Shown: one piece after another, positions 3,311 to 63,923 of the stretch
Layout: every line of letters starts with the position of its first letter
How positions within the stretch are numbered: position 1 is the first letter of the stretch
Notes under the pieces: model-generated
Seen by the model: the letters and a program-made list of their open reading frames with translations, nothing else
The model's database searches: none
What the model was told of the DNA's origin: nothing
Assembly (NCBI GenBank): GCA_024679065.1
Contig: JAGIQG010000016.1
Location: 13,330,001 to 13,394,000 of the forward strand
Direction: 5' to 3'
DNA: 64,000 bases
Source of the DNA: Sphyrna mokarran
Lineage: Eukaryota
Position numbers and translations under genes: made by a program

Positions 3311-3615
3311 GACTTGCCTGGGTTTGCAAGACCTCACTTACTGTACTGTCTGGAGACAATACATATCTCCTTAACCTGTGCTCAGTGCTCCTTCCACTCA
3401 CATTGTTAGCCACTTTAAGACTTGAATAGCAGGTTAGGTGTGAAGATTTACATTCTAATCAGTAATCTGTAAACTGTCTGTGCTATTATATGTGCTGTTT
3501 GAGACCAGAAAACCTCATTCACCTGACGAAGAGGGGGACCTCGAAACCTTGTGAGTTGACTATCAAATAAATCGGCTGGACATAAACCTGGTGTTGTCAG
3601 ACTTCTTGCTGTGTT
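3311..3615 (+). mobile_element. Penelope-like 3' region/pseudo-LTR with hammerhead-like motif
   Basis: CTGACGA-GAGG/CCTC stem-GAAA at 3523-3546 followed by aataaa...cctggtgttgtcaga, similar to 29640-29680. Confidence 0.7.
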
Positions 3616-4378: not shown

Positions 4379-4414
4379 AGCTTTCCACGTGCAAAACTGC
4401 ATTGAAGAAGCTCG
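4379..4414 (+). CDS. 36-nt microexon, (E)LSTCKTALKKL
   Basis: ttttattgatttcag|AGCTTTCC...AAGCTCG|gtgaga. Confidence 0.88.
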
Positions 4415-7400
4415 GTGAGAAACTAGAGGTTTTTACAAAGAAAAATGAAACAGCCAAATAGTGACCAAGCATCACACCTGGGCAAAAAACAAAATAAGTT
4501 GTGTGACATTCTACTGACCATCCTTTTTTTTCCGAAGGGACCTTGTTTTGTGTTTGCATTCAATTATACTCAATTAACTATTGCAAAGTATAAAATATGC
4601 ATTTAGGGCAATATCAGCCATTCATCTCCTGCATCATCCATTTAATCGCAAGAGCATAACATTGAATCTCGTGACGCATCAATGAATTTGCCAGTGACAA
4701 CCTCAATGCCCTCCATTCAATTGTCTAAAATTGCATTTGTCAGCAATTGCATCTGTTTTGTGGACTGATATTCTGATCGCGAAATTGAGGAGATAAATAA
4801 CAACAGCATTTTTTGTTTTCGTCTTACAGAAGAAAAGCTGCAAGTGACGTCAAAAGGTGTTACGTTTTGCAATGCAACTGCGACATATCAAAAGTGTCTC
4901 TATTAGAATGGTTTTCATTCAACTGAGCCCGCAGGTTCGACTGCATTCACGGTATTATTAATTTTGTCTTAAAGCTGACGTCATTTACATGTTGGCAACT
5001 AACGAATGAATGACATTCAATTTTAATCATGATTCAAAAACTGATGTAAACATTTGTGAATATGCAGCTGACGGGCAATGAAACGGTACTTTTAGCTTTC
5101 CATATTTATAAAATTATGAACAGTTCGCTTCAATTGGATTGTCAAAATGCATTATGAGTTGCTGCAAAATGACGATCTTGGAAAGACACATCTCTTTTTT
5201 GCAAAAAAAGTTGCTTTTTCAATGATAATAAAATGATATTTGCTGATTTTGTGCTTCCTTAAAGTGAGCATTGTTATCCATTAATTTATAATCAGTAAGC
5301 TTACTAGGCAGATATTGTAAACATTTGATCACTTGTCTATGAAATGATTTCCAAATCATAAAAGCGGAGATATAATGAAGGAAATGGTTATCATATCAGG
5401 AGGAGCAACTACGTATTTGAAGTCTTAATCTCTTTATTGATCAGCATACCTTCTCTGATGCATTAACAAACACAATTTCCCGAAACATCATCAATATAAC
5501 GGGGATTGCTCGCAGCATGTGCACATGCGAGAATCTGTATTTGGTAGGTTGGCAATAATTGATATGGACTGTTTTCTTCTTATAGAAACAGATGATGTTC
5601 CCGGCACGACTGGCGATTCAGGTTTGCAGGAATAGTATGATGCTCGGTTTGAACGTTTTATTTTATTTTGCAGCTAATAAGACATCGTGGAGTAGAATAA
5701 TAATGAGACATTATAAACCACTGTCCGTTCAATGAAAATTAGTGGCTTTAGGATTTTGTCAAATGGCTGAAAAAGAATACGAAGGCAGTTAATTTGTTAA
5801 TTAGTATTCTGTTAAAAAATTAATTCGACCTTACCTGGTTAAATGCAGAGGCCATAATTGGGACCTGTTTGTGGCTGTTATGTCAATTGGATATTTCACT
5901 TTTACTAACGGATACATATGCAAGCTAAAAGCTGATTTTAACAGATCTGAGAACATTGTGGGTAGTAATTGATCACGGAACGTGCATCTCCGCAGTCTTC
6001 CCTTCAACAATTATAAACTCATTGATACATATATCTCAGCTAAATATAGTGTCTGTACTTCAGGTGTTTTGGAAATGTATGTATGAAAGTCAAATGGCTT
6101 CAGTGACACAACAACTTAAACCGCGACATTTCGGAGAAATGTACAGGAAGAATCATATCGATTTTAGATAATGTGAATGTAATTCACGAACATCAGTAGA
6201 AAAGCGCATTCTTATTGTAGTTATACAAAGCAATTCCTTGATCATTTTATTAATTCAGTGCTTCTTTCCCTAAATGGAATCAGTTGTACAATTTAAAAAT
6301 AATAATGCGGGGTAGGCGGCTGTACAGTGTTTTTTTTTCAGTTGACAATCGAAAGGCAGAGGATAATGCAGTGTGGGCATGTATTCGAAGCAAAGACAGG
6401 TGCTGAAAAATGATCCATATAATTTGGAATGATTTGAAATTATGAAATCAAAGTAATTATAAAATTGTTTTAAAAGCGGATCTGTTTCATGAATGCGCTT
6501 CAGGCCAAATACTAGTTCTTTACCCTAAGTTCGTTATACATTACCTTAAACCGACAGCAAGGTTATTGACTTTTCACTTGCTCACTAAAATTAGTCGTTG
6601 CCATTTTTTCAAGAGAAAAGATGAGTGGGCAATAAATACGAACGCACGCAATGAAAGCCTAAATGTTCTCGATGACAAATGGTATCCTATGTGCTCAAAT
6701 CCTGAAGACAATAATTTCCGAGAAAATAGTTTATACATTCTGGTTTCGGAAAATAATCGTCGCACACAATTATGCCGCTGCGTTAATCTGCGGATACAGT
6801 TGCCTGATCGGCAAGGAATGAATTGATTGCATTCATTTCTTGGGAGGGGATACTTTGTACCCTTTACCGTTGAGACAAATATGGCTGTAGCAGATCAGAG
6901 CGTACACCGTGTTGAGGACTTTTTTTTTCAATAGTTTGCCTTTTAACATGGATGCACATTTTCAGCTCCATCTGTAAACCAAGACGTCTGGGCCCTTTGC
7001 AAAGCTTACACTGTCCTGGCTCCTCAATTGTGCATTAGGTGAGAGTTCCATTTCCGCTTTGCAAGATTTCCATTCTTTACCGGGATATGAGTCATTGGTT
7101 CCGACTACGTTCGTTGAACAACCAGATTTCTGTTGAGATGGGTGTCATGCTGTTCAAATTTAGATCGACTTTTAAAGACCTACGCATTGTGTGGGTTGGC
7201 GAGAGCCTGCCACCCAGCCGATTCAGAATGTCTGATTGTCTTCACGTTGTCACTCACGTTGACGATTATTTACCGCTAGTCATTATGGTTTCCTTGGTCA
7301 GCGAATCGGTCCTCTGATTAATTCAATACTTTTTTTATTAAGTTATTGTCTACAGCGATATTGACTTGGCCGCTGGGTTACGAATCGATACTACTGCTGA

Positions 7401-10400
7401 CCACGACTCCACCAGCCTCCCTGTAGAAACGATTTTTTGATGACATAAATTATGACGTTTTGATTTATTTTGTTCTGATGTCCCTTTTTAGTCCGAGGAA
7501 ATTCTAACCCTTTGATATTTCAGTCAATTGCCAAAATTGCATTTGATAGTCAAGTGACTTGAGCCAACTTCTTGAAAAAAAACATGGTAATGCAAATCCC
7601 AATGTCTTGTGCAAATTGTGGATGAAAGCACAATGCTACCAAGACTGTTACCTCAATAATCTGGGCATGCTAATAATGCAAACAGTTTCCTTTTTATTTA
7701 ACAGCGATGAAATCGTTATATGTACATGCTTCAACTCTCAGTTGAATGTAAAGCGTTTTTTTTTAGGAGAACCATACTTGTGTTCATTGAAATATCTTTC
7801 ACACTCTTTTACAGAATTGAAACTGAAATCAAAGGAGGCAGGTATGCTGTTGTGGATTGTTAATATACATAGTAAAATTAAGATAAAACTATTTTAATCC
7901 ACTTATAGCCCACAAAATGGTACCTATATATCTAGAGTCATAGAGCCATAGATGTTTACAGCATGGAAACAGGTCCTTCGTCCGAACTCGTCTGTACTTT
8001 TCTTTTAGAGAAGCTCCTACACTTAACTCAATTACACGAATTTGGCCCATACCCCTCGATACGCATTGCAACCATGCAACTACCTATTTTTCTTAAGACA
8101 GAATTGCACCTGTCTCTATGACAATATCTGGCAACTTGTTCCAGACACTCACCACTCCATCTGTGAAAAAAAATGTCACTCTGGATGTTTTTATACCTGT
8201 CATCTCTCACCCTAAACTTATGCCCTCTAGTTTTAGACTCCCCTACATTTGGAAAAATAATTTGATTGTCTAGCTGTTCTGTATCCCTCATTATTCCATA
8301 TACCTCTTTGAGAGCACCCCACAGCCTCCTACATTTCAGAGAAAAATGTCCAAGTCTATCAGGCTATCCTTATATCTCAATCCATCAAGTCACAGTAGCA
8401 TCCCTACTTTTCTGCACTTTTTGTAGTTTAATAATATCTATTCTATCATAGGGGGACCAAAACTGCACATAGTATTGCAAGTGTGGCCTCACCGATGTCT
8501 AGTATAACTTCAACAAGACATTGAACTTTTGAACTCAATGTTCTGACCAATGAAACCAAATATGCCGAATGTCATCTTCACCACTTTGTTCACTTTGGCT
8601 CAACTTTCAAGAAACTATGAACATGGACCCATACATCTCTTTGCTTTGTAACTCTCCCCAGCGCTCGACCATGAATTGAGTAAGTCCTGCCCTGTTCTGC
8701 GTGTAAGCGAAAGACGGCTGCAGTAGCGATTGAACATATTTCCAGTCTTTATATGGACCGTAGCGTGAACTTTATTTTTGTAAGATTGTTAAGTTATGAC
8801 AGTGGTTTATCTATCAGATTGTTTTTTTTTTTTTGGTGAGCAAACTGACAGATAAATATATTGCGCGTTGCTATGGCGCATTTGGGTATTATTCATACCG
8901 GATTACGGCAGACCAAATTGTTTCCCGAATTTGTGGGGACATTTCCAAAACTTCGTTTTGAATGAGGAAAGGTGGGTCCCACACTCTTTTACAAACGGAG
9001 CATGCTATTTTTTTCTTAATTATAGCCGAGAATCAACTTCATTTTCTCCGAGTCAGTATTATTTTACCCACAATTGCACTCTAGACAACATTAAATGCAA
9101 TAATTTACTTTTCACTCAATCAGTAGCAATTGTGAAATACAAGCGCGGCCCATTTGTTTAGACATTGTCAACTATATTTTGCGTGTAATTCTAGATGTTT
9201 TTTCGCAGTATCGATTGTGAGGAAATGCGGAATCCAGATCCTATATTAAACAGGTCACGACAACCTTCCATAATTTATAATTTATGATTAACTTGGTTGT
9301 CTCTGAGCCAGTGGACACCATCGTTTCACCCTCAGTTGCACACTTGGCAAAACTAAATGTGATTTTGTTTTCACTCATTCAGCCTCAGTTGCAAGAGTAC
9401 ACGTGCGGACCAATTGTTTAATTATTTTTAACTCTGTTTTGTGTGTAACGTTAAATTTTTGCTTTTAGTATTTTACCTATCGTAGCTACTGGCTCTAAAT
9501 CGTCCTTGGATAACCACATTACAGCAAAACCGATATTGTTCTTCAGGTTGGCTAATACCACCTGTTCCCAAGTAAAACAGATACACAAATAAGGATAGAA
9601 AAGTTGTCCATCCATGTTGCAATGAACAAGAGTTTTTTTTCTCCCCACTCCCCCCAACGGATAACTTACCAAACGTAAAGGTGAATTAAGTGATCTCGGT
9701 AAGGGATTCCGATCTACATAGTAAAATAACCGGCAGAATTTTCCGCTGAATATATTTTACGTTGAACTGCTTCCGTATTCGGATGTGGCGAAGCAAACAA
9801 TTCATGTTTAATTTATTCCCTGTCTGCGATTGTGCAACGGTTATCCGGTACCGGTTTGTTGTGGAAATTCTCGGCGTTTACAACTGCATGTGCAAAATGG
9901 CAAGGACATCATACGTGGCTAGTTTTTGAAATTAATTTACTTGACATGGGCGTCACAGGCAAGACGAGTATTCATTACCTGGATAATCCACATTAGCCCA
10001 ATAACACTGACTACGATTTATGCTGTAATATAGAGCAAAATACTCCCAATTAAATAATTATGATTAATTTTCGCAAAACAATAATGAGGAAAGGGACAAA
10101 GTAAAATTGGTATGATGTTGCACTTTTAAGTTGGACAATATGTGATCGGCTATGAGCTCGCTGTCCGTCACTTTTGACGGCATAATTTGGACCCGCCGAT
10201 AAAGATTTTAAAAAGTGTTTTTTTTTCGGCTTTGAACTGCGACATTGAACAGGAGAATGAACTGCACAAATGGGATTTCTCCTTCCCCTTTTGCGATGCG
10301 CTATTGCTATATGGAATGTTGACGTGTCGGCATTGTTTGTTATTTACGTCGTCGTCTGTTTATTTCCTATTTCTCCAATTTGGGAAAGTTTAACTGTGTC

Positions 10401-13400
10401 TCCAGGATGGAAAAATTATTTTCGTTCTGAAAACTGGAATTGCATCATAAATTAAAATTGCGTGTTCAGGCACGTTGAAGTCTCTTCTGAGTATCAGTTC
10501 TCATCTGGTAATTGAAAAGACTCTCAAATAAGCTAATGATGTTTTGGAATGATTACTTAGCCCCCTAACGTACATGTTTGCACTTTAACGGAAGGAAAAG
10601 TTAAATCACAAAACGAGGGTAATTGTTATTATTTATTCGCTGAAAAAAATAAGCAAAACTTCTAATGACTTGAAGGGAAAATCATTATATGCGATATTAG
10701 AGGGAGAAGGGTTGCAGAAGCAATTGCCATTTTCTTTTGTTTTTCGTTTTTGTGGTGGGATGACGGGAGCTTGCCTATTTTAAGTCTTAAGTGCAGTAAA
10801 ATACCCTGTACTTCAGGTTGACATTCTTGCGCACTAAGTAATATGTGCATGGCTCCACTGGGAAATTTTTGACGCAGGTAGTCTACAATGGCTAAATTGG
10901 CGATTTTGTCCACCCTTATTCAGATGGTGATGTGTTGACCTTGGAACGAACTTTCCTGAAAAAAAAGGATAATGTTGGATGGCTTTATATGCCAGTGTTC
11001 TGATTCCTTACTGCTGCGAATTTAATGAAGTTTTTGGTTGCCATAATAAACTGTTTGTCCTTATACATTTTCCTGAACATGTTCTAAGGCCATGATAGTG
11101 AGGAGCATCAAGCCATTTCTGTTTCAATTTAATGCCTCAGCTTTCCTAAGTCATGACTAAAAATTTGCTTAAACCAGGCTTTAATCTGTTAATTTATCTT
11201 GAGTTAAAAAAAAAGATAAGGAAATAAAGACAATTCAAACTTCCGGGCCTACTACCAAATTTTGATCTTACCCTCTTGCTTACTCATCGCTGCAATTTGC
11301 ATTTTTTAAAATATATATTTGAGCTGCTAACACTCAAGTGATTCTAAAGCTTATCACTGCTTGAATCAATGTTTTGAAGCTCGTAAGAAGTAGACGCAAA
11401 TGCATCTTAACATGACCAGCTTTCAAATGCTTCGCATTTACTTGGATACATGTTGTAGTGATAAGTAAATGTAACTGATGTTTCATTGACGATGTGTTCA
11501 ATTAGAATTCTGATCTATTTTCCACCAATGGTAGCCCTCACTTAAGTTCTCCCGGTGATTCATTCAGCTGCAAATAGTCTAGTCACTGTAATTGCCGGGT
11601 GAAATAAACTATTTCAGAATTTGTCATGCTTCTGAACTGACACATTGTTTTGTTTCCTGAAATTCTCCAAATTTACTTATCTCATTTCTGCATTGTTCTA
11701 TGTGGAGGAATGTACATCTTACTATGCCCTGAATAATTGCCCAGTCGAAGCGCTTCGAAAGACTTTAAATACATCAACATATCAATACACCTCAGGCTGT
11801 TTTGAATTTAATTGCTCAAAACATGCCGTCCATCATTCTAGAAAATATCACATGCAAGAAAGCTTCGGAAGATTTCGGTGAGACAATATACTCGCTCATT
11901 GAACAAAACCATTATGTACGGACTTAATGTGGTAGAGAATGTAAGCGATATCGAACTAATCAAACCTTGACAACGTAAAATTTGTTTCGCAATAATCGCA
12001 CAATTCGAAATATTTCCACGCTCATGCGAGAAAACATACTCTGCATTTTGTCTGTCTTGAACATTATCACTGTTATCACTGTTTATCACTTAATAATGAT
12101 CGTATTGCAGAATACAAGTTGAATGACAAGCACAAAGATATTATGATTTATAATTGATAAAATTTTAACGTATTAACATAAGTGTTAGCACAAAAATTGC
12201 CCGATGAAAGATACCAATTCTAATATAGAACATAGAACATTCTAATATGAATGCCATTTCGCTCTTGTTTGTTCTTTGTATCGACTTTATATGTAGTCGA
12301 TATGGATTTTTTTTTTGAAAATCAGAGGGCGGCATTCGTGTATCGAGTCAAAATAAATGTTGCCTCTGGCGTCATATGCCAAATCTTTGTGTTTGCTTTT
12401 ATTCTGCAGTTTTTAGTGTCACGGAGAACCGTGCGCAGAATTCATTCGATGATAATCAGATGCGTTTTGGCACTATTATGCTTCAGACATTGAATGACGT
12501 ACTGAATGAAAAAAAAGTTGTATGATTTATTTCCATTACATGTTTTCAGCACAATTTAATGACGAATATTGTTCTGCGGTTCCTCATTAAACAGCAATAG
12601 GGTTGGTTCGTTGTAAATTTGAGTCTCTTGACTTTATGTAGTAACACATAAAGTACCATTCAGAACTGGCCAACACCAAGAAAGCCATTGAAGAGGAAGG
12701 CCAGATTAGCGCTGGCGTTGCGGTGTGGGAAATTATTATTTGCATATATTGAAAACTTCGTGGTGTATTCGAAAATGGGCTTATGAGGCAAGATTCTTGA
12801 TTAGTTTTCTAACAGATTCGTGCGCTGAAAATAGCGAAATTGAAATCAATTTGTCCAAAAATATCTTGGGCAATAGTATTTTGAGTTGGAACACAATTTG
12901 ATTAATCCAACAGAGTTACTTGGCTGGCATTGCATTGCATTGGTTAAATTATCCGAATCGATTTGGCAAATAATATATGGGAAAACAAAATGTTGGTCTT
13001 AACGTATATGAGGAATGTTAGCGTGGCTAAGAGTTCTGCAGTGAATGGGTTCTCGTTTCTTTCTGCATTATTGACTGTTTTTTAAAGGAAACTATCTGAT
13101 GTTAATTATTGCTTTCCAATGTTAATTCGCATGCTGAATTCCACGAAATGCAAAATTATGAATAGAAGTACCCAGAAAAGTCACATTTTACGAAGAAAGG
13201 ACAGATCGCACATGAATATAATTCTAGAAGTGCATGACATCCTTCTTAAAGTCGTTCCAACGAATATTTCGACTGCAACCAGCTTCAGTTGAGAGAATGG
13301 ATGCGATAGAATTTAGTGTTTTTTTTAGTTTCATACAAGTCAAATAGTTAACGTGTTCCTCACAATTAATTCGTCCAAACACGATGTGATCGCACATTCG

Positions 13401-16400
13401 CATGCGATACTCAGTAACGAGCAATAATAACATTAAAATAAATACACTACTGTTCCAAGAAACTCTTAAGTAGAAACATATAAAAAATGAAGCAGGTGTG
13501 AGTCATTTGACATTTCCAGCATCTCCGCCATTCATTGGAATCCCAGCTGAACATCAAATTGAATATTTTGACTCACCCTTCCCTTTGTTCTTTTAGCCGC
13601 AAGAGTGCTATCTAATTTAAACTGGAAATCATATAATATTTCGGCGACACCAACTTTCTATGGCAGTGAGCTCCACACATTCACCACTACCTGTTGAAGA
13701 AACGTCCCCTCACCATTGTCCAAATAGCTTTACTTTTATTCTCTGAATATGACAACGATTCTGGCCTCCCTAGCATCGCGATCAATCCTCTCTGAATTTA
13801 CCCGTTCTAACCCGGTTAGAATTCTATAAATTTCGATGAAAGCCCCTCCCACTCTTGTAAAAGTAAGTGAACACCATCATAACTTGATTAGTCTCTACTC
13901 AATATAGAAACATATAAACTTGAAAAACGTTCAATAATAATTGCCGTCAATCTGCACGATGTGCAATTAATGTCAATGCAAGAAAATAGCCGATAGATTC
14001 GGCACCCGGAATCTGAAGTTTACCTGAATTAGCAAATGAACTGCAGATTACCTTACTTTTCAATATCTTGCGTTCAAATTGGAGCAGGGTGAAAAAATCT
14101 GAATTTTGAATTCTCTGTGCACTATTCCTTTTTATTAGCAGATTTTTTTCAAGCTTCTATGTTTCCAAGTGTTAGCAGAGATTAAGCAAATTAATCTGTT
14201 GTTAATTTGCTTTTACAAGAACGGCAGGGGCTCTCGTCGAAACTTACAAAATTCTAACCGTGTGAGGCAAATATGAATTCGCAAAATATGAAAGCGACAC
14301 TGCCGGAGCCCAGAAGTGGATGTCATAGCCAGGGGATAAAAGAAAACCTACTTGAAGTTTCATTGTTATATCCAAATGTGAGCGTGAAGTGAGGAAATAT
14401 TATAAGTGCATAACATCAATGTGAAATTTCAATTTCTTACTACAAAATGTGGAAGTTTTAAATAATGATCTGGTCATTAGCGGAATAAATTTAGAGAAAA
14501 AAAACTTGTCAATTTTTAGATTTAAATTGAAATGTTGGTGGGGCCATACCGGAACCATCGATACTGAATTAATTTGATTTATACACAACAGCAGTACATC
14601 ATGCCAACTTTTTTTGTGAAAGTAGAATTGCTGCCATGCCAATCTCAGCGTCGAATTGGAAGTGGAACTTCCGATGTCCTTTGCCAAGAAGATGAAAGCA
14701 TATTTCCCATTATGCATTTCAACATTACTGACTCAAATTGTGCACAGTACATACGCCATATTTCCGTTTACCTTGTCCAAAATCCAGGTGCTATCATCGA
14801 AACATCTTGCTACATTTAACAATTCAGTAACCTCGAGGATGCATCACGAAGAACAGGAAATTGCTTTTTTTTCGAGCAGTGGCGTTCGAGATATCTGACA
14901 GAATAATGAAACGCAATACACGGTCAATTATTAAAATCTAGAATGACAAAAGATAGCATGTCATCTGGTTTAAAAATAAGTCTCAGGTTGGCTGTGAGAT
15001 ATAACATATCTATTTGTAGACTAAATTACCCTTACAGATTGAAATTCAGGCAAGTTATATAAGGATCCGTCGAATTAGATTTGAACTTGCGCCCAAGACG
15101 TAAGTCGAGGACAATAAACTTATCGCAGAGATTATTCTTTTTTCCTAGGTTCAACATGAAACGTACAGGCTGAATAGCTGCTACTACTTTGGTGCAGAAG
15201 AGGGACAATTTTCATCCGGCCAAGTCATGCTGACTCACTCTGCTGAATTCTTCTCTGTCTAATTGACACTTCATCCCAACTCCGAATTTATTCCAATAAT
15301 AAATAAAGTTATATTCTCGAAGGAAAATGAGTAGTCATATGTCCAGGAGCATAATTTAATTCCAATAATAGTGAATCACTATGAAGCAACTCATTAAATT
15401 AAGTTGTTACCGATAATTGAATATCGAAATTTACCAATCTGTATTGAGAAAAGAGAAGTTTGGTTGCAAGGGTGCAGGCTAGTGAAATAATCATTTTTTT
15501 CTAAAAATATCACACACAGGAACACAAATCTCTGAGTTGAAAGAAAAAAAAACACATGAAAACATGAATACAATGTTTGTTGTGTACATAACTTATTGGA
15601 AAATAACGTGTAATGAACATGCTAATCGAGTATATTGCAAGTAAAATATGCTTGGAATGCACTGGAAAAGCTGCAACGAAGAAAGAGAATGAAGATTTTG
15701 GAACTGAGGCATTTTAAACATCACTAAGCTGGTTGTGCTTTGTACATTTACTTCTGACGGAGTGTAGGAAACATGAACGACTCTTACGAGGAATTATCAG
15801 TTTAGAACAAATTAACCTGCCTGTGTAATATAAATAACCATCCTTCCATTATAGGAAAACAACTGGAGTCAAAAGAAGACGGTAACTCTTTTAACAAATT
15901 TCGATTTATCTTACACTATCCGCCCCTCAAGCGCCATGACAGAGAATCTGTTAATTATACTAATGAAAAATGTGGCAGGTGGTGTAAACTGGAAAGTAAA
16001 GAACACAGTTCTGAATTTCTTTGGCAGGCGGACAATATCCGTTCAATCTTAAAATAGTATATTTTGACTTCAGCACACTTCAATCGTATTGGAATGTGTT
16101 TGAGATTTATTAATTTTTCGTAACACACAAAAAAACAGAAAATAGTTACTTTGGGAAAGTTGTTTGTAACATTATGGTCTGCGAAATTCCGGCCTGGATT
16201 TCGTGTCACGCTTCAGCGTGTGGGTGGGGTGCAGTGGGAAGAATAATGCGGTACTTACGTTAGTTCGCGCAGCGCAGCCATTCTCTTTCTGCTCAAAATT
16301 AACATATGCTGTGGGAACACCCTGCACAAGGACATCAGAATTGAAACTCTGAATGTCTCATATTAAATGGAAAATGTGGCTTTGAATTCGCCTTTACTGC

Positions 16401-52400: not shown

Positions 52401-55400
52401 GATTTCTTGCCACGTATATATCTGAGAAAGAAGTGCAGGAAAATATCAAAGTTGGTTCTAGGCACTTAGAGATCTCGAAAACTGAACATGAATCAGTTTT
52501 TAAAAATAAAATCATTGTGTGACTGCTATGGCGGTGAATTTTGGCGGCTACTGATAGGCCTGTAGAAATGTTACCAAATCCTTCTAATTTGTAATTTTTC
52601 AATCTAATTTTTTGGTTCGCAATACTTCATCGTTGTCTGGAATAACGTGAGGAGCAACGGACAACAAAATGGCAATTTGTCCTGCCTTTATTTAAAGAAT
52701 CGAGAGCATAATATTAAAAAGAAGATTGAAAACAGGAAAAGTCGACAAGGACAATAATGAATAACAAATCATAAGCATACGGACTACTTAACAACACAAC
52801 TCCCCTAAAATTACCTCTCCTTCCCAACTTAACTACGTTGTTTGGAAACACAGACATTGTTTTCCAAAAAAAATCATAACGATTGTTACCTCTGCAATTC
52901 AAATTCAGTTCATTGCCACCACGATTTAGGTGGCCATGTCTGCAATGCTATCAGTGTGAGGTCAGCAAAGGCATACATCTGCGCGTTGTGGAGGAGAATA
53001 CCGGCAATATGCATTCCCTCTTACTTTCAAGGGAGTTTTGGGCGATCTGGCAGTTGAACGTCAACTACTCTCTCGGGCTTCGGATTTGTATAGTTTCCTC
53101 AATATGGCAATGCTTGCAATGATAATACTTTATCTCCGTGACATTTCAATCTCTGGATTCAGTTGCCAAAATATCTCAAATTGCCTGAATTTAGAAAATC
53201 GCATGCACATAAGTAATTAACTCAAAGTATTCGAGGGAAGTTTTTTTCCTATAAATAGTGCAATTTACATGTAATTTGGCTCGATATCTGCTATCATTGT
53301 TACGAGTAAATCCAAACCCTATCTTCACTTGGTTTGGCAGGTACGCGTGCCATAATGAACATATTTAACCGCTTCTGTGCCATTTGTGTCTGATCATAAC
53401 TTCGTACTGTTGCTGTTTTTGATGGACAGTTCCCTATCAATACGCGATTTAAACTTTTTTTTTCTTGTTTTCAAATTTACACATTCAGCTCTGGAGAAAT
53501 GCAAAGCTATAGTGCAGAAATTGAGTGAAAAGAACTATTTTCCCATTCGTTATTTTTTCAAAGCTATTTGGCACCAGATACAAATGTGCTGTAATTTATT
53601 TTCAGCAAACAGGATGATTCGTTCTAAAACATCTAAAAAAAGTATTTGTGATTGTTTGATCTAATACTACCAGTTACCAAATTTGGACTTACGGCTCATC
53701 TTAGTTTTTTGTTGAATTCGTAATGTATAGTCTGCCATGAGCAACAAAGCACAATGTTAACGCAAATGCATTAAGGTGGCAGAAGGGTATAGTTTAGAAC
53801 AGTGCGCCCCCACCTCACCCCCCACACCCTACATAGCTATACGCAATAAGCCCAATGCCAAATTCTTGTCCTCAGTGGGAAGCTTTGGAGGAATATCATG
53901 ACAAATATACCGTGCATTAGTCATTGAATATTGGACTCCTAAACATTATGCAACCTAAATATCTTAGTTCTATTTCCAATAGTGCAGCGTAGTATTAGAG
54001 AAAAAAAAACGATTATTCCTTCTGTTTTTGTTTGTCTGTCAAGCTATTACTTAAAACATAAACTGAATTCTAATCTCACGAATTCCGAATGCTCCTTTTT
54101 TTTTGCATTTCATTCATATCTCTGAAAAAAAAAACGAAGGAACCGTTCTCTGTATAATGCTTCCTTTTTTTTTGACCAATTCCAGTGAACCCATACTAAT
54201 ATTTTGTTGTCTATTTAATATCCCCAAAGACGCTGCTGTAACGTTTTGAACTGCGTGATTTTTATTTCCTGCCTGCTCTTTAATAGTCTTTTTTTTATGT
54301 CTTTCATTTTCTTACACTTTGAGCACATCAATACTGCTTGTTATTCAATGGGAATGTACTCGATAATCGCTTCGATTCGTTTATCATCTCTATTGCCTGA
54401 TCCATTAACCCATATTGAACTCATACACAGGCCGTATCCTACTTTAGACATCCTCACGAATTTAACACAAAAAAAATAGGATTTGAAGTAATTAAAAGAC
54501 CAGTGATTAAGGCAGTATTCCCCATTTCTGCCCAAATCTGGATTGTATCTTGATTTGTAGTTACGTCTCCTGTTTCTAATGTCTAAGATTAGGGGAAATA
54601 TAATACACACGCCTGACCAATTCATTCATTTCATGATTCTGAAGGTTTCGTTGAGCTCAACCCGGATTCTTGGAAACATTTCAGACTAAAGAAATGTATC
54701 CAATTATTTTCATGATGCGGCACTAAATTGCGAGGGACAACATTCCCAATCTTAACTATTTCGTATTGCCATTAATTGTGAATTTTATTCAAGTTTCTGA
54801 TCCAAATATGAAAGATATTTTCTTTCATGGGCAACTCTCACTGCACTTCCACAGTAATATCCATCTTGATCCACGTAACCAAAATTGTCCCCCCTCCACC
54901 CCCCGCCCCCGGCGTGCTTATTACATTGTAATTATACTCGAAGGAAAATTCCATTACAATGTGCTGGCAAACACCTTAATGAGGAATACCGCATCATGAG
55001 CCTTCCTCACTTCCTCAGTTCGATATAACTGCTGTCCGGTGTGTCTTAGTGAACAGCATATATTGAAAACTTTAGCTTCTAACTTCTCCCAATGAAATCC
55101 GTTCACCCTTCCCAAGCCACAGCGTGATTTTTTCTCTATTATATCCTTCTGTTTTGAGCATATGGAAATAGGGCAGAATTTAACTAATTTATGGCATGTC
55201 TTACCAATCTGCGATTGGCTGAAAAGGGGGAACGCCATCGACTAATGTTACAACACAGTTTCTCCAGACTTATCTTTAAAATATGAATCATTGGTATAAT
55301 AATTGTTCTCATGAAAAGTAAGATTTGTTACTGTAACGACATCTTCCTGATACGAAAATCAACGTGTCTTTGTTGCCAAAATGTTTAAGACAGGGGAACG

Positions 55401-58400
55401 AATCCTGTGAAGGCCTTAGAAATGATGACGTGATGCATTGATAAATTTTATAAAGATTTAAATTGTTGATAGCGTTAATACGCTTGTCTAATGTGAATTT
55501 CGAATTCAGTGCATCGACATGACACATCGGACATATCTACAGCCTCCCTGTTCATTGATGATTTTTTTTTTCCGACCTTTGTTCTTTGGAAGAAGTGACT
55601 TTAATTTTAAAAAGTAGTGAGTCAGCGGTCGAAACGATTAGAACGTAATCATTCATTTGATGACTATTTGCAAAGTATCACAAGGCACATACCCAAAATA
55701 ATCTAAATTAGGCAATACTATGTTGTCGTAAGCAATGCATATAAAAGTTAAGTGCAAAACAGTAAACAGTGTTTAGAATGACAGCAAGTATTCTCTAATT
55801 ATACACCCGATTAATAAAACGTCTAAATGATGGAATTCAGAACGGACTAGAACGGTAGAAAAGCCGCAACATACTGCTGCAAATTCTGTAACTCAAGAAT
55901 GCACTTAGTTCAATACATCTTTTAATTTTCGAAAAGACGACACATTTAATGTATCTTCCTGTAGTGATAACCCTTTTTATTCTTTCCAAATTTTATCAAA
56001 CAATAAGTCATTTCAATCTTTTGTTTATTGAAAACAAAATGTTGTACAATACCGTGCATTCTGTGAAGGATTTAAGCTTGCCCAGTCAAGAGTTACCTTA
56101 TAAATTTATCCAATAGTATGCCAACTCTGCAAAACAATCTCAGAAGCTTTATATGTTTTGGAATGTTGACGTCCTTCATTCTTTACAGCTGAAACAGAGT
56201 AATTTACACTTAGGTCTGTTAGCTCGAGTAAAGCTAATCAAGAACACTCAAAATTCGGAAGGAGAATTAGGTAATGCCCGTCCTGTGGTCCAGTCTTATA
56301 CTGTGAGTCATTCATTCAACCGTCAGCATTGAAATTCAGTTAAATCTGCAAGCTAGTGTTGGCAATGGCCGCATTGAATCAATCACTGCTTAGAACATAG
56401 TTGTACGCTTGGTGCGTATGTTTTCCTGGTTCGTTAGCGCACTTCAGCAAAGGAAATCTGCACTCTTGAGCAACACTATTTCAAAATATTAACTCACATG
56501 TGCCCACTCAGAGATCTCATAATGCCACGCCGCTAAAGGCAATTACGTATCGATGTCATTTACCTATCACCAAAAAAAGGGAAATTGCAAAAAGAAACAA
56601 CTAAATGTGTTGTTTTCGGGAGAAATCAGATGAAAAGCTTTTTTTTTCCCTGAGATCCGTTGTAAAAACTAAGTTAAATTCTGAAAGCAAGGTAGAAATG
56701 AACAACCATCTCAGTTGGATCGAGAATACAATTTACGTGCGCATGTCGCAAACAATAAAACAGTACTAAGTGTGGAACGGCAACAAGATATTGGAGCCAA
56801 GCAGGATATAAGCAAATATGGGAGTGGTATCATTGCGCTACTCCATGATTGTTTTGCACTTAGTCAGTAAAGAGGTAGAGTTGACAGATTCATATTGAAT
56901 GCGACCTATGTATATAACCTTTGATTACAACCTTCAGAAGGGAAAGCCGGAGCAAGATATGAGGGGTGATTGTTTGTGGATGTTGGCCGACATGAAGGAT
57001 AAATCAATAGCTACAAAGCAATATCGATGCTGGGGATGTTTTCAGTTATCGAAAGGCATTTGACCAAAATCTGGTTAATTAAGCAAACTTATTGCCCCTT
57101 AGGTTAAAAAAAAACTACATGGTAAGCCAAGTTATTTCTGAGACGCAGGTAATAATAGATGAGTGAAAAATTTGGTGTTGAGCATTTGGAATTGCAAATC
57201 CATTTTCTAGAGCACCACATAACAACGAGGTTACCCAAGTTGAAGACCATTGAGTAAAATTCTTGTAGGATCATGGAAGACGGTCAGGTTAAGCAACATC
57301 GAATAGAACATTCGTAACGGCGTGTTTAACAGCACACAACATCACCGTAAATTGAGTGTCTGCACTTTATCTTCGTAAGGGTATACCAGGCCCCGTTCGA
57401 GATTTTCGGTTGAAATAATACATCGAAATTCATCGAATAGTGTGATGAATAAAGAGTCGACTTCAATTTGGCAAAAAAATAGACTACGAAATGAGGCTAG
57501 GTGAGCGGAGCGAGGGTATGCATTTTGTCGTGTTGGTGCACTTTATTACTGAACATCGAACGCAGTTCTGCAAATTTAGAAACACAGTGGAATAATTGAA
57601 AGTTGTGAAGCTATTTCTGGTTGGTGCAGCGCTGTGAAACTTCGATCAGAAACTTAAACTGAAGGATGGCTCTTGTATAAAATATGGATGTTATGGATCT
57701 TTTTTTTTACGCGAATAATTCCTTCATTTTTAGAGGAGAATTTGAAAGGGAAAGAGAAAGGTAATAGTGTTAAAGTTGTTTTTGGACAATTCATTTTAAG
57801 TTCAACAGTAATATCACCACCCGGATCTTCACCCCCTCATTCACAATAGATACGCAATTGCACTTGGAGGCACAAAACGGACAGTGGTGTGCACATGTGA
57901 AAAATGTTGATACAGTTGATTGATGTGCACATGCATAACTCTATAATTTATCAATGCATGCGTCAAAAAGCCATTTACTTGTGAACCAGCGTGAGGAAAA
58001 TAATATTTCCACTTTTATTACCTGTGTTCCAAGATTCAGAATTTTTTTAAAACTGACCAACGCCATGAGAATCAATTCCTGTCCTTTGTAGGTTAAATAT
58101 TTTATAATTTGGTGCCATGTGTCTCGATGTTTTGTCTCCGTGCCTCAAAACGATAAGGAACAGAGATCAATTCTTTCTCTGGGTGGTTATCTGTGTGGAA
58201 AGTGCACATTCTGTCCATATATGCATTGATTTAATTTGTGTGCTCCGGTTTCTCGATGCATCAAGCAATTCTAACCATGTTATTATTATAAATAATATTG
58301 CGTTGTTGTTTTTGTAATTATTATTGTTAGCAACATTTTTATTAGAGCTACAACAATAAATAACTTTGTGAATAGCAGCGGCAGGAATTCAACTATTATT

Positions 58401-61400: not shown

Positions 61401-63923
61401 GGGATTCTTCTATATCATATATGATGATTCCTTTGCATTCATCGTACGCTGCAATTTGTGTTCGAATCATTCGATATACATGGGATCATCTCAGAGACTA
61501 TCGCTGTTGCTGTGCTCACACATGGATTTGGGCCTGTGTCTGCGGGAGTTTGCGCGTTCTCCCCGTGGTTGCGTGGGTTTCCTCCGGGTGTTCCGGTTTC
61601 CTCCCACATCCCAAAAATGTACTCTTAGGCTGATTAGCTAACAAATTATCCCTATATTGGTCCCTATATGGGAATCTTCAACAATAGGCATAGCCTAAAG
61701 TCAAGGATATGTCATTAAGACGTTAGGACGGCGGCGTGGGCTCGTTGGGCCGAAGGGCCTGTTTCCCGTGCTGTGTTGCTCTTTGTTCTTTGTTCTTGTT
61801 ATCATTTGATTGGCCGTTCTTCAACGTTTCAATTGAGCAATGCATTTAAATTGTAATGATTTTTTTTGCGAAAACCACTGACCCAACACACATTTCTTTA
61901 CATTATGTTCCATTGAGTAGCCAATACAGTGTCCCAATGTTTAGCACTGAAGCCTCAAAGCGCAAGTGACTTGGGTTTGATATTCACCTTGGATCACTGC
62001 ATATGCAGAGTTTGCACGTTCTCCCCGTGTCTCCATGTGTGTCTTCTAAAATCTCAGGTTTCCTCCTACAAACCGAAATGAAATGTTGCTTGAATGCATT
62101 GGTCATGCTATATTATCCCTCACTGTATCTGAATAGACGTCCAAGTGAGACGACTAGAGGATCTTCAAATTAACTTAATTGCAGTGTTAACGTTAGCCGA
62201 CTTGAGACTAACATAATAATAGATTTCTTTATCTTAAAATATGGTGGAATCTGCATTTTAATACATTCATGACGTCATCTGAGACGTGATCTTGTAGCTC
62301 CTTCCAAAAATATAGCAAATTATCTGATGTAATTTTAAACATTTCACCATAAGGACGAAACTTTCTATGCTTTATCGACCCAGGATAAAGGAATGGCAAC
62401 ATCATTCTAAGTCAATGTAATGCTTTCTTTCCGGATAAAACTGGGAAGATATTCTTCTCATGTAATTTTTCGCTTTATGCTTGAAAGTATTTGAGCTGAT
62501 AATTTTGGAAACAAAATGGCAAATTACACGCCAGTTTGGAAGATCTTTCTTCATGGATAACTTCCATGCCCGGGCCTGTTGCTGCCATTTGAAGAAAACA
62601 TACAAGAGAAGATAGCTTCAAAGCAATCCTGAAAATCTGATAAATGTGTTGGGCTATTTGATGGGATCAGCTGCAGAGTTTCCAAATTCAGAAATGCTAA
62701 TACACGCGCTCTTGTCGTAGCTTCAGTGTAACTGCCACTTCCGCTTTTTGCTAAAAGTTAGCTACATTTTGTTGAAGTTTAGTCTCAAAGATTGGGAAAG
62801 TGAAGAAAGCATAGTGTCATTGGATTGCTATAATATAGACGGAATCCTTTCACCATTGCAGCAAAACATGCCAGTTCTGCGAAATGTATGTTTTTGTACC
62901 TCAAGACTGTTTTGGCTGTTATTGTATATTTTGTATACTCCACTTTATTATCAATTTAGTTTTGTAGGTCACCAGATAAACAGTTACCTCTAACTTCACA
63001 GACAACATTTTAGAGATCTAACATACTAACTTGAAATACCTTTTGGCTCATGTTGCCATTCATTTTCCTGTTGCCGGTAATCTTAAATTAATGCCTTGTG
63101 GTCTCCACCCCTCCAGCCATGGAAAAGTATGTCACAATGGCCGCTGCCTACACGGCTGATAATTATGAAAATAATTCCGAAATTTCTGTTTAAACAGAAA
63201 AGTAGAGAAACCACATCATTCAAAGCTATCACTCAAAATTAATCACCCGTTCGTGCTATTCGTAAATGGTCGGTTAATGTGCATCACACTTTAAGCTGCA
63301 GTGATACGATTGATGTTGGATTATGTGTCTAATAAGAAAATCTTGCTCTGTAGAATTTATTGGAGAACATATTTTCTTGTTCGAATTGCGTGGCTTGTGT
63401 CGGCATAAGCCACCGACAAAAGTACATTCGGCACATCATCCTCATACCCTCTCAACCCAAGCCACACGTCACCACATCGTTTAATGGAATTAAGTCGATT
63501 GACTGACTTCACCACATGCTAGACAATATTTGAAAGTGTACGTTGACAGCACGCTATTACTAAAAACCAAACGGTTTTATATTTAATACTTACGATCGAT
63601 ATCAATCTACAGTATGAATGCTTATCAATGAGAACCCAATGTTGTGCAATCGAGACAATATGGCATGTTCATAAATTAATGCACGTCGTTCCAATTAATG
63701 AAACCTTCAAAGAAAATAATTGTTCACTGCACGTTTGTCTTTCATTCGGATCCACGTGCCGCCATCAAACCCCCCCCCCCCCCCCCCTTACTACCTTCAC
63801 TGCCACCCCCTTAGGGCTGCAGGATTTTCCCCACCGATGACGCCGAGTTTTAAGTAACCATTTGCAGTTATTTATTTTTAATTTCAGATCTTACTGACAC
63901 CAAAGAAAAGTTGGAAGAAGCAG
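4379..63923 (+). CDS. Internal part of a multi-exon gene: array of ~21 alternating 36-nt/27-nt phase-1 microexons encoding a 21-aa-repeat coiled coil; start and stop outside the window
   Basis: Repeated pyrimidine-tract+AG / 36 or 27 nt / GT units in alternation; spliced frame is open and shows heptad hydrophobic periodicity (positions 2,5,9,12,16 of each 21-mer). Confidence 0.88.
4830..4856 (+). CDS. 27-nt microexon, EEKLQVTSK
   Basis: ttttgttttcgtcttacag|AAGAAAAG...TCAAAAG|gtgtta. Confidence 0.82.
5586..5621 (+). CDS. 36-nt microexon, ETDDVPGTTGDS (atypical, non-helical)
   Basis: gttttcttcttatag|AAACAG...GATTCAG|gtttgc; exact length and slot in the alternation; ends TCAG|gtt like the 17700 exon; composition is divergent. 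Confidence 0.55.
7815..7841 (+). CDS. 27-nt microexon, ELKLKSKEA
   Basis: actcttttacag|AATTGAAA...GGAGGCAG|gtatgc. Confidence 0.88.
7935..8700 (-). mobile_element. CR1 LINE 3' fragment
   Basis: (agagtcat/agagccat) tail; minus ORF ...ESKTRGHKFRVR... Confidence 0.85.
11842..11877 (+). CDS. 36-nt microexon, ENITCKKASEDF
   Basis: catcattctag|AAAATATC...GATTTCG|gtgaga; TCK motif and donor shared with the 4379 exon. Confidence 0.85.
12111..12137 (+). pseudogene. 27-nt microexon-like unit EYKLNDKHK with non-canonical (AT) donor; probable dead exon
   Basis: gtattgcag|AATACAAG...CACAAAG|atatta; right size, slot and xxKL motif, but GT replaced by AT. Confidence 0.55.
12664..12699 (+). CDS. 36-nt microexon, ELANTKKAIEEE, GC donor
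   Basis: ccattcag|AACTGGCC...GAGGAAG|gccaga; resembles the 63888 exon, whose donor is gtcaga. Confidence 0.68.
13468..13900 (-). mobile_element. Highly degenerate CR1 3' fragment
   Basis: tagaaacat tail, cacacattcaccactacctgttgaagaaac and aattctataaatttcgatg...ccccctc segments resemble other CR1 copies. Confidence 0.55.
15855..15881 (+). CDS. 27-nt microexon, GKQLESKED
   Basis: tccttccattatag|GAAAACAA...GAAGACG|gtaact. Confidence 0.87.
17700..17735 (+). CDS. 36-nt microexon, ELNECEKDLEAS
   Basis: cttaatcataacag|AACTCAAC...GCTTCAG|gttggt. Confidence 0.87.
19105..19415 (-). mobile_element. HE1-like tRNA-derived SINE, degenerate
   Basis: ggccttt...gggaggaag...gaggaaacccacag...ctccgcacag pattern shared with 26800-27120. 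Confidence 0.65.
19937..19963 (+). CDS. 27-nt microexon, EDNLKLKEN
   Basis: ttttttttctatgcag|AAGACAAT...GAGAATG|gtattc. Confidence 0.88.
21370..21700 (+). mobile_element. tRNA-derived SINE, degenerate
   Basis: A-box-like tggcggaatgg and B-box-like gagctcgaatcc; related fragment at 60790-60850. Confidence 0.5.
21960..22775 (+). mobile_element. Degenerate CR1 3' fragment
   Basis: ctgaaagtggcaacacagttagataagg..., FTRKVMNICNAL..., 3' end gaaggtccgaag...ttctttgt. Confidence 0.8.
24283..24318 (+). CDS. 36-nt microexon, DLTSCTRSLKEL
   Basis: tctatctcccag|ACCTGACT...GAATTAG|gtaaga. Confidence 0.9.
24738..24800. repeat. (TAT)n/(TAC)n microsatellite
   Basis: tattattatt...tactactactactattactacgactactactac. 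Confidence 0.9.
24800..25795 (+). mobile_element. RTE-clade LINE fragment; 5' portion (24800-~25005) inverted
   Basis: Minus: WKQGSIP...CDNHRGISLLSITGKTLARVMLNRL; plus: FTYFGSTL..., GRRSRGGQKKRF..., ARIGLSSHLR; followed by (TAT)n repeats. Confidence 0.85.
26800..27120 (-). mobile_element. HE1-like SINE
   Basis: aaagaacaaaacagcacgggaaacaggcccttc tail; gggaggaaaccggag...gaaaacccacgc...ggggagaatg body. Confidence 0.8.
27330..27840 (-). mobile_element. CR1 3' fragment
   Basis: ORF 27505-27828 MLQLYKTLIRPHLEYCV...LERRRLRGDLIEVYKIM. Confidence 0.92.
28330..28735 (-). mobile_element. Degenerate CR1 RT fragment
   Basis: VDKGEQVDIIYLDFQ; gaggtcccagcaccgatccc...ggcactccac (reverse of SGVPxGSVLGP). 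Confidence 0.8.
29143..29169 (+). CDS. 27-nt microexon, GEELKIKEH
   Basis: tttttttttcag|GAGAGGAG...GAGCATG|gtaaca. Confidence 0.9.
29508..29682. repeat. Long inverted repeat (~84-bp arms) derived from Penelope terminal sequence
   Basis: taagaggtctgacaacatcaattttaaatccaacc... pairs with ...ggttggatttaaaattggtgttgtcaggcctctta. Confidence 0.92.
30070..30240 (+). mobile_element. SINE fragment (HE1-like body)
   Basis: tctccccgtgtctgcgtgc...ttccttccacagtcaaaaagac...gttaggtggattg. Confidence 0.7.
30497..30532 (+). CDS. 36-nt microexon, ELIAFKTSMKVL
   Basis: ttttctatattacag|AGCTCATT...GTTTTAG|gtacgt. Confidence 0.87.
30690..31030 (+). mobile_element. CR1 3' end
   Basis: gtggatagtcagaggctttttt...ggtaggtacctggaacg...gaagggcctg. 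Confidence 0.8.
31269..31295 (+). CDS. 27-nt microexon, EEMWEAKDE
   Basis: ggtcttttacag|AGGAAATG...GATGAAC|gtgagt. Confidence 0.87.
32406..32441 (+). CDS. 36-nt microexon, QLKTCDELERKL
   Basis: ccaaactgcag|AACTCAAA...AAATTAG|gtaagg. Confidence 0.88.
35445..35637 (-). mobile_element. tRNA-derived SINE 5' part
   Basis: Reverse complement starts ggggcagcatggtgggagaatggttagcattgct...cccggtgttgattccc. Confidence 0.75.
37080..38010. mobile_element. GC-rich putative non-autonomous DNA transposon fragment (Harbinger-like end), includes (CT)n and (CA)n tracts
   Basis: Abrupt GC/CpG-rich block ending gaaatgataaactcggtccc, whose reverse complement resembles the start of the block at 42871; internal palindrome cgcgcccg-aaaa-cgggcgcg. 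Confidence 0.4.
37589..37627. repeat. (CA)n microsatellite
   Basis: cacacacacacacacatacacacacacatacacacac. Confidence 0.95.
41174..41203 (+). CDS. Length-variant short microexon: 30 nt (VKDEMNKENE) or 24 nt from 41180 (DEMNKENE)
   Basis: Strong donor GAAG|gtaagc; two in-frame acceptors (gaatag|, ttaaag|); occupies the 27-nt slot between two 36-nt exons. Confidence 0.68.
42078..42113 (+). CDS. 36-nt microexon, DITDANKMLKEA
   Basis: tttttcttcatttcag|ATATTACC...GAAGCAG|gtctga; 28/36 identical to the 63888 exon. Confidence 0.88.
42871..43725. mobile_element. C-rich putative non-autonomous DNA transposon fragment (Harbinger-like end)
   Basis: Starts gggcccgcttttaccatatc (TIR-like), followed by a strongly C-skewed interior. 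Confidence 0.4.
44343..44575 (-). mobile_element. CR1 3' end (older copy); probable continuation at ~45500-45740
   Basis: gaacatagaacatagaacagtacagcac tail. Confidence 0.75.
44576..45412 (-). mobile_element. Young 5'-truncated CR1 (HER1-like) with intact 246-aa ORF2 C-terminus
   Basis: ORF 44669-45409 WAERWQMEFNVEKCEVMHF...LVRPHLEYCVQFWSPH...; (AGAACAT)n tail. Confidence 0.95.
46035..46900 (-). mobile_element. Penelope-like remnant with inverted terminal repeats
   Basis: Minus peptide KLEEQHLIFLLGILQP..NIEF; 46045-46135 is an imperfect reverse complement of 46790-46885. Confidence 0.75.
47230..47256 (+). CDS. 27-nt microexon, EEKLKSTEE
   Basis: tttctttattttgagcag|AAGAAAAG...AGAAGAAG|gtatac. 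Confidence 0.87.
48150..48445 (-). mobile_element. Degenerate HE1-like SINE
   Basis: tagaatcat tail; cccgaggccagaatcaa...gtgagacagcagc 5' end. Confidence 0.55.
48465..49500 (+). mobile_element. Rex1/Babar-like LINE 3' fragment
   Basis: RT-like segment (ctggattctg...gccccag...cttgtacacctatgactgtgtggcc); LYFLRRLNKFG...CSAQDRKKLQ; ends aataaatcaaatcaa. Confidence 0.75.
50560..51700 (-). mobile_element. Rex1/Babar-like LINE, deleted fragments
   Basis: CSPDLQYWTLKCRPYYL...VSIPP endonuclease-like peptide; degenerate 3' part at 50560-50970. Confidence 0.7.
51885..52395 (+). mobile_element. Penelope-like non-coding terminal region with hammerhead-like motif
   Basis: ccgacga-tgtttcc...ggtgac-gaaacgtct...caagctcggcgaac at 52323-52385. 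Confidence 0.55.
53489..53524 (+). CDS. 36-nt microexon, ALEKCKAIVQKL
   Basis: tttacacattcag|CTCTGGAG...AAATTGA|gtgaaa; conserved CK motif. Confidence 0.8.
54340..54700 (-). mobile_element. Very old CR1-like 3' fragment
   Basis: ttcatgattctgaaggtttcgttgagctcaaccc-type segment; weak. Confidence 0.3.
57734..57760 (+). CDS. 27-nt microexon, (K)ENLKGKEK
   Basis: ccttcatttttag|AGGAGAAT...GAGAAAG|gtaata. Confidence 0.88.
60486..60509 (+). CDS. Possible 24-nt microexon, EESNKSSK
   Basis: ttttcctgatctgttgaag|AGGAGTCC...AGTAAAG|gtaaat; in frame and parallels the 24-nt option at 41180, but breaks the alternation. Confidence 0.4.
61530..61800 (+). mobile_element. HE1-like SINE
   Basis: gagtttgcgcgttctccccgtgg...ccggtttcctcccacatcccaaa; tail gggccgaagggcctgtttccc...(ttctttg)n, reverse complement of 2856-2970. 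Confidence 0.85.
61925..62225 (+). mobile_element. tRNA-derived SINE (second family)
   Basis: ttagcactg..gcctca...gagtttgcacgttctccccgtgtct...ggtttcctcc. Confidence 0.7.
62975..63240 (-). mobile_element. Very degenerate CR1 3' fragment
   Basis: atcttaaattaatgccttgtggtctccacccctccagccatggaaa resembles the reverse of the CR1 FP...TRGH region. Confidence 0.4.
63888..63923 (+). CDS. 36-nt microexon, DLTDTKEKLEEA
   Basis: tttatttttaatttcag|ATCTTACT...GAAGCAG|gtcaga. Confidence 0.9.

Follow-up and report, generated by a model that had tools for sequence, protein, structure and literature searches.

The window analysed here is a 64,000-nucleotide stretch of DNA (C668:13330001-13394000, where C668 is the contig that carries it, in a 2.77-Gb genome), in which the original prediction placed 21 short units on the + strand. 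All 21 were found at the predicted positions, each following an AG acceptor, and a single phase-1 frame, as had been claimed, stays open through 21/21 of them. Nearly all were expected to end at a GT donor, and 19/21 do so, the other two being the unit at 12664, which has GC, and the unit at 12111, starred in the original prediction, which has none (AT). The predicted alternation of 36-nt and 27-nt units holds, as one of long and short, across all 21, with the short unit at 41174 measuring 30 nt. Moreover, the 20 donor-bearing units total 642 nt, or 1.0% of the window, in agreement with the earlier estimate that ~1% is coding. The features, in window numbering, are the following.

4379-63923, + strand: central segment of one large gene, from array scans; putatively linked to a terminal B30.2 exon
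4379-4414, + strand: 36-nt microexon, first half of module, GT donor
4830-4856, + strand: 27-nt microexon, second half of module, GT donor
5586-5621, + strand: 36-nt atypical Thr/Asp/Pro/Gly-rich microexon; strong splice sites, module profile unmatched
7815-7841, + strand: 27-nt microexon
11842-11877, + strand: 36-nt microexon
12111-12137, + strand: 27-nt unit without donor (AT)
12664-12699, + strand: 36-nt microexon, GC donor
15855-15881, + strand: 27-nt microexon
17700-17735, + strand: 36-nt microexon
19937-19963, + strand: 27-nt microexon
24283-24318, + strand: 36-nt microexon
29143-29169, + strand: 27-nt microexon
30497-30532, + strand: 36-nt microexon
31269-31295, + strand: 27-nt microexon
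32406-32441, + strand: 36-nt microexon
41174-41203, + strand: 30-nt variant of the short microexon
42078-42113, + strand: 36-nt microexon
47230-47256, + strand: 27-nt microexon
53489-53524, + strand: 36-nt microexon, weak donor
57734-57760, + strand: 27-nt microexon
63888-63923, + strand: 36-nt microexon

The rest of the window holds short simple repeats, together with ORFs that we take to be LINE-like. Three stretches that look like the tail of a LINE reverse transcriptase, and presumably derive from one, lie at 2952-3458 (- strand), 44669-45439 (- strand), and 48774-49178 (+ strand); two of the three sit in introns between units, and Pfam gave no reverse-transcriptase match. A retroelement or tandem-repeat origin of the units was rejected, there being neither a long ORF nor a tandem array at the units, and so was an RNA family, the window having no Rfam matches.

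To set the units against chance, the opposite strand and resampled sequence, both proposed earlier as nulls, were scanned. A generic splice filter, which demanded a G at the exon end (a condition picked after the units were seen), gave eight 27-nt and nine 36-nt units on the + strand, vs one and two on the - strand, and 0-3 units at each of the other lengths in the same window. A splice-site-only model, itself trained on the window units, gave nine 27-nt and nine 36-nt units on the + strand, vs one and none on the - strand; in 40 dinucleotide resamples, its means were 0.78 (27 nt) and 0.43 (36 nt), with a maximum of 3. The excess of microexon-like units is, hence, specific to the + strand and to units of 27 and 36 nt. 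Held-out DNA behaved similarly. Downstream of the window, a profile trained on the window units alone found 18 new 36-nt units scoring >12, with none on the minus strand, as well as 22 further 27-nt matches vs 2 on the minus strand, these matches including a few donor-less or spurious ones. In an unseen 40 kb upstream, a retrained profile gave 14 units scoring >12, and 14/14 were stop-free, where a chance AG..GT segment stays open 55-61% of the time. Across a 304-kb array, 57/78 neighbouring 27/36 pairs alternate (permutation p 2e-5), which makes the alternation looser outside the window than within it.

The 21-aa coiled-coil module that had been proposed was confirmed: three heptads are encoded jointly by a 36-nt and a 27-nt exon, both symmetric and in phase 1. 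Across 24 modules, Leu dominates positions 2, 9, 12, and 16 and Lys position 19, the core follows an a-d-a-d-a-d pattern, autocorrelation peaks at 21, 42, and 7, and Cys occupies position 5, a core position, in 13/24. Of the three g-e' pairs, 1/6 is attractive in 11 of the 24 modules and repulsive in 1, and 15/20 is attractive in 11 and repulsive in 2, while 8/13 is never attractive and is repulsive in 2; with two of three pairs attractive, the charges would fit a parallel, in-register coil. Selection on the coding sequence is visible in units that were picked by likeness and compared in non-independent pairs: identity by codon position runs 2>1>3, both in the 36-nt units (0.55/0.48/0.37, n=31) and in the 27-nt units (0.72/0.61/0.45, n=24), and pN lies below pS (0.50 vs 0.69 and 0.31 vs 0.85, respectively). 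Exon omega was 0.46 on 4 alignable pairs, too few to carry weight. Duplicated blocks are only 65-79% alike, which suggests that the exons outlasted their introns. The unit at 5586-5621, which has the 36-nt length but is of another type, is likely a helix-breaking spacer in the rod; by eye, it resembles repeats near residues 900-1015 of a chimaera relative (XP_042192744), and this exon and the chimaera repeats may be flexible hinges. The unit at 12111-12137 is probably a dead exon that is skipped, and the frame would survive the skipping.

The array extends far beyond the window, reaching at least 267 kb upstream, where units are still present at C668:13063338, and at least 196 kb downstream, through at least C668:13590518. 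On the same strand, 322 kb past the window, lies a phase-1 B30.2 (PRY-SPRY) exon with a terminal stop (C668:13715942-13716462), which matches PF00622 (E 3.6e-17) as well as the solved structures of BTN3A1, TRIM58, pyrin, and TRIM21 (E 1e-22 to 1e-18). We infer that the window array is joined to this exon, although no units were found in the 6.9 kb directly before it; the gene would then span at least 653 kb and encode a chain of about 1,800 aa or more, as extrapolated from the measured unit density. The original reading, a lineage-expanded phase-1 microexon coiled-coil gene of butyrophilin/BG-like build, was borne out as that of a real gene, except that the window appears to hold only about 10% of it.

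Outside the window, ~298 kb of sequence was read, with 13.096-13.290 Mb covered by pattern matches alone, while C668 13.594-13.709 Mb (115 kb) and everything 5' of 13.056 Mb, and so the first exon, lay beyond the reading. The 304-kb list holds 89 units, of which 5 have no donor and 83 are distinct and donor-bearing, encoding ~849 stop-free aa (the listed count of 84 and 858 aa includes the unit at 109238, an inner acceptor of the unit at 109229); 13/89 were entered manually on the basis of previous scans, chiefly the splice-only one, which required an open frame. Module-like units that have lost their donors were seen in the window at 6342 and 30727 and downstream, in window numbering, at 68732, 72097, 82444, 163184, 199792, 205082, and 228298, and one decayed module-like unit contains a stop. 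To judge by their sequence, the lost-donor units are decaying exon copies, a sign of microexon birth and death. Three near-identical 27-nt units, 13-17 kb apart at C668:13267944, 13280792, and 13298010, would be a recent block triplication within the gene. The median intron is 741 nt after a 36-nt exon (n=26) vs 2,246 nt after a 27-nt exon (n=28), and the 36+27 pair may therefore be defined and duplicated as a unit.

Decay of this kind bears on an alternative that we hold to be very improbable, namely that the array is made up of at least two genes in tandem, or is a locus in decay, and that its window part is not joined to the B30.2 exon. Such a locus would account for the 5/89 donor-less units and about five more decayed ones, one with a stop, as well as for a stop in one related B30.2 exon on another contig (C1548), and the 115-kb gap and the 5' end lie outside the sequence read. 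However, the phase-1 frame has no stop in the 84 listed donor-bearing units, an absence partly due to unit selection, vs stops in 59 and 31 of them in the other two frames; pN is below pS; and the relatives considered below show the same joined architecture. Furthermore, neither genome searches nor the DNA read contained a second B30.2 between C668 13.06 and 13.716 Mb, and tblastn with 193 proteins found no Ig, RING, B-box, or other B30.2 exon in the DNA read. That a single microexon gene with a coiled-coil-rod/B30.2 architecture is present is, on this sequence evidence, highly probable.

The gene belongs to a family. At least eight B30.2 exons of its subfamily are present in the genome (two clade-domain queries, with 150/191 and 150/185 candidates scored), of which six listed are on C668 (8.558, 11.338, 11.879, 11.926, 13.716, and 14.320 Mb) and two on C1548 (99.103 and 101.418 Mb), one of the C1548 exons having the stop mentioned above in its matched stretch. 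A 27-nt-unit pattern gave 97 matches genome-wide vs 19 for a reversed-pattern control, and 71/97 precede, on the same strand, 7 of the 8 listed exons (8, 2, 6, 19, 28, 7, and 1, in listed order), with none upstream of the 14.320 Mb exon. A perfect 27-nt match at C1548:98132492 (- strand) is upstream of no clade B30.2 found. Within the paralogue at C668:11.96-12.42 Mb (- strand), 27-nt units that are almost identical reappear at intervals of about 63-75 kb (12199733, 12268459, and 12340004; also 12167734, 12232146, 12307556, and 12370497), which suggests recent tandem duplication of large blocks inside that gene. The region C1548:81-113 Mb, which includes two family members at 99-101.5 Mb, is dense in immune exons: besides a V-set cluster at 81 Mb, it carries some 100 SPRY exons, about ten butyrophilin IgV-IgC pairs, and numerous RING/B-box exons of TRIM type; it is possibly MHC-linked.

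In other species, the most similar B30.2 domains, with identities of up to 46%, belong to models from Leucoraja, Scyliorhinus, Narcine, Cetorhinus, and Callorhinchus and to two assembly fragments. In a 53-row tree (midpoint root, outgroups from match lists, isoform duplicates omitted, no cartilaginous-fish butyrophilin among the rows), these relatives, the window gene, and one paralogue form a clade of 11 with a long stem (support 100/99), which is cartilaginous-fish-only and separate from the TRIM and butyrophilin B30.2 domains sampled. The earlier view that annotation misses such a gene was right insofar as genes of this kind are mostly fragmented and misnamed, but RefSeq does hold partial, misnamed relatives in five cartilaginous fishes (XP_042192744, called 'nuclear-pore anchor-like', XP_038671249, XP_038672306, XP_055510696, XP_069775384, and XP_078422387), these being automatic models, mostly short or partial, named after unrelated proteins. 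In a further model, XP_038668997, the N-terminal part (residues 63-118) matches a repeat present in multiple copies, with 8 occurrences in the DNA read, and is an annotation artefact.

Two models that end in a clade B30.2 contain the window module repeatedly: Callorhinchus XP_042192744, of 1,697 aa, has 7 scoring copies, vs a mean of 0.06 and a maximum of 1 in 100 shuffles, and Scyliorhinus XP_038671249, of 945 aa, has 5, vs a shuffle mean of 0.03. The module scores once in the Narcine model, not at all in 3/6 relatives tested, and once in 1/5 control proteins. Internal 9-aa blocks differ between RefSeq isoforms in 3/3 groups of relatives compared, and 6-aa blocks in one, which are the sizes of 27- and 18-nt cassette exons; the 9-aa cassettes would be the best indirect sign that the microexons splice to the B30.2 exon. 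Genome searches gave no matching exon for the first 331 residues of the chimaera relative, nor for the whole chimaera protein outside its B30.2 and low-complexity stretches, and word-index protein searches returned distant TRIM-like models, multi-B30.2 models, or the query's own cluster. For the skate relative, AlphaFold run on the single sequence gave a low-quality model (mean pLDDT 45) that placed two long helices before a beta domain.

We propose that the chains would pair in register into a parallel coiled-coil rod of roughly 270 nm, at the coiled-coil rise of 0.15 nm per residue, with the B30.2 heads at one end. Because all exons keep the frame, duplication, donor loss (5/89 units), and skipping would alter the rod length without breaking the protein. 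An N-terminal hydrophobic leader would export the rod from the cell, core cysteines would lock the chains by disulfides, and the clustered heads would bind a repeating target by avidity, in the manner of stalk-plus-head innate binders. This secreted, disulfide-linked mode is tentative, and we give it somewhat less than an even chance. Counted for export are (i) hydrophobic N-termini in 2/7 non-fragment relatives, Leucoraja XP_055510696 and Callorhinchus XP_042192744 (11-residue hydropathy 2.9 and 2.85), both within the window gene's subclade; (ii) the core Cys in 13/24 modules; and (iii) a Cys-poor clade B30.2 (0.7 vs 2.5, p 3e-4, a value made optimistic by the relatedness of the sequences), which is also rich in Trp and basic residues. 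Counted against it are the 5/7 non-fragment relatives that have no hydrophobic leader, one of them with a repeat-derived N-terminus; the Callorhinchus leader, whose hydrophobic stretch runs into basic residues and would suit a membrane-anchored protein with its rod in the cytosol just as well; the lack of enrichment of N-glycosylation sequons in the clade B30.2 (p 0.35); and the cytosolic B30.2 of TRIMs and butyrophilins.

The same Callorhinchus N-terminus speaks for a membrane-anchored protein with both coiled coil and B30.2 on the cytosolic side. Such a protein, which we consider rather unlikely, would resemble a butyrophilin/BG receptor tail behind a tiny or highly divergent ectodomain and would act as a long tether or sensor below the membrane. 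The best solved-structure match of the terminal B30.2 agrees with it, being BTN3A1 (E 1e-22), narrowly above TRIM58, and so do two precedents: in the cited part of PMC6790196, butyrophilins place very short heptad exons between the transmembrane exon and the cytosolic B30.2, and chicken BG tails, in the section of PMC4046983 concerned, are many 7-8 aa exons in variable number. However, of the flanking B30.2 and IgV exons that had been suggested for checking, a B30.2 was found and no IgV. Specifically, butyrophilin IgV (85/85 candidates scored) is absent from C668 from 5.4 Mb to the end and IgC PF22705 (88/88 scored) from C668 beyond 3.4 Mb, true butyrophilin IgV/IgC exons mapping to C1548 109-111.6 Mb and elsewhere; a V-set search scored 150/1,261 candidates, and a very divergent IgV could escape detection. 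The 19-residue hydropathy is, moreover, only 1.5-1.6 at best in the two leader-bearing relatives (and 0.35 in the ~850 aa mapped here, the 5' end lying outside the mapped stretch), and the B30.2 stands apart from butyrophilins in a tree that held no cartilaginous-fish butyrophilin.

The leaderless relatives, among them a Narcine model with five isoforms, argue instead for a soluble cytosolic coiled-coil-B30.2 protein, a RING/B-box-less TRIM or an enterophilin-like scaffold that would bind targets or the cytoskeleton with no ligase activity, a reading that seems improbable to us. It agrees with the domain searches, in which RING PF15227 (150/391 candidates scored) matched C668 at 3.8 and 48.2 Mb only and B-box PF00643 (150/325 scored) at 48.2 Mb only, leaving C668 8-15 Mb free of both among the candidates scored, and in which the relatives (7/7 scanned) showed SPRY as the only Pfam domain above cut-off and no IgV, RING, or B-box. 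Likewise, the ESM Atlas has chordate clusters, 1,277-1,802 aa long, that show PRY-SPRY but neither Ig nor RING, some of them labelled as isoforms with high numbers; as these clusters are given without species, the architecture may extend beyond cartilaginous fishes. On the other side, 5'-incomplete models are to be expected for such genes, both leader-bearing relatives fall within the window gene's subclade, and a regular core cysteine would be easier to explain extracellularly. Taken together, the Ig, RING, and B-box searches point to a butyrophilin- or BG-tail-like build that is, on the features tested, outside butyrophilins, BG, and TRIMs.

B30.2 domains are central vertebrate immune sensors (TRIM5, TRIM21, pyrin, BTN3A1), and in a secreted rod the domain would work outside the cell. 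In a literature that was mostly open-access, we found no account of cartilaginous fishes having a microexon coiled-coil-B30.2 family, though supplements to papers may list its genes. The clade occurs in chimaera, sharks, and rays alike; this genome carries about 8 copies, and six of these are scattered across megabases of a single chromosome. It was apparently overlooked because ~1% of the locus codes and annotation often keeps the last exons, misnamed. The full proposition, that chimaeras, sharks, and rays share an undescribed family of B30.2 rods that are secreted, linked by disulfides, and as long as ~270 nm, and that form a third B30.2 branch, is speculative, and we rate it as doubtful as a whole. 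If it is true, the gain, loss, and skipping of >100 frame-keeping microexons in the largest genes would determine how far an extracellular pattern binder of B30.2 type reaches and what valency it has, and a branch beside TRIMs and butyrophilins would gain isoform diversity by splicing. The gene would also show in extreme form how tandem duplication of a two-exon module can build a protein, and its shifts in rod length without frameshift would extend the chicken BG model. The coordinates given here should ease annotation of the family's genes.

Among known systems, class IV TRIM proteins (TRIM39/21/58-like, A33-like), after which RefSeq names relatives, likewise carry a coiled coil followed by a B30.2. 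TRIM dimers are antiparallel, and their B30.2 is cytosolic. In contrast, the window-gene coil is several times longer, microexonic, and of a charge pattern that fits a parallel pair, with no RING/B-box in 7/7 relatives or, among the candidates scored, near the loci. Enterophilin combines heptads with a B30.2, without Ig or RING, and the vespryns share a B30.2 without Ig or RING, ohanin having 107 aa and no rod. Ohanin is described, in the passage of PMC12730704 drawn on here, as a B30.2 protein purified from venom, and the stingray 'ohanin/vespryn' labels are, in the corresponding part of PMC4768133, database best matches. A venom toxin was rejected as a reading, the stingray labels being mere best matches; the family is present in catshark and basking shark, so that nothing points to venom. 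Among the heptad-exon analogies drawn originally, the butyrophilin/BG build is supported, the co-oriented terminal exon at 7 loci being a B30.2, whereas CD23 would be an analogy only, since no lectin exon is needed to explain the array. Chicken BG, as portrayed in the relevant portion of PMC4046983, is likewise a multigene family whose long coiled coil comes from small exons that expand, contract, and splice alternatively, but it has an IgV, a transmembrane exon, 21-nt exons, and no B30.2, whereas the window gene has 36+27-nt pairs, a B30.2 exon, and no IgV found. The closest parallel in exon order is with the butyrophilins (BTN1A1, BTN2A, BTN3A, BTNL), in which short heptad exons lead to a terminal B30.2 exon, the domain being cytosolic (PMC6790196, in the part cited), and in which heptad number differs between species (PMC12841164, likewise in part). 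They have few heptad exons, whereas the window gene has >80 mapped, in a two-exon 12+9-aa module, with no IgV/IgC found, a B30.2 in a separate clade, and the genome's real butyrophilins elsewhere. By its sequence, the window gene thus reads as a new form of the butyrophilin/BG/TRIM B30.2 rod-and-head design.
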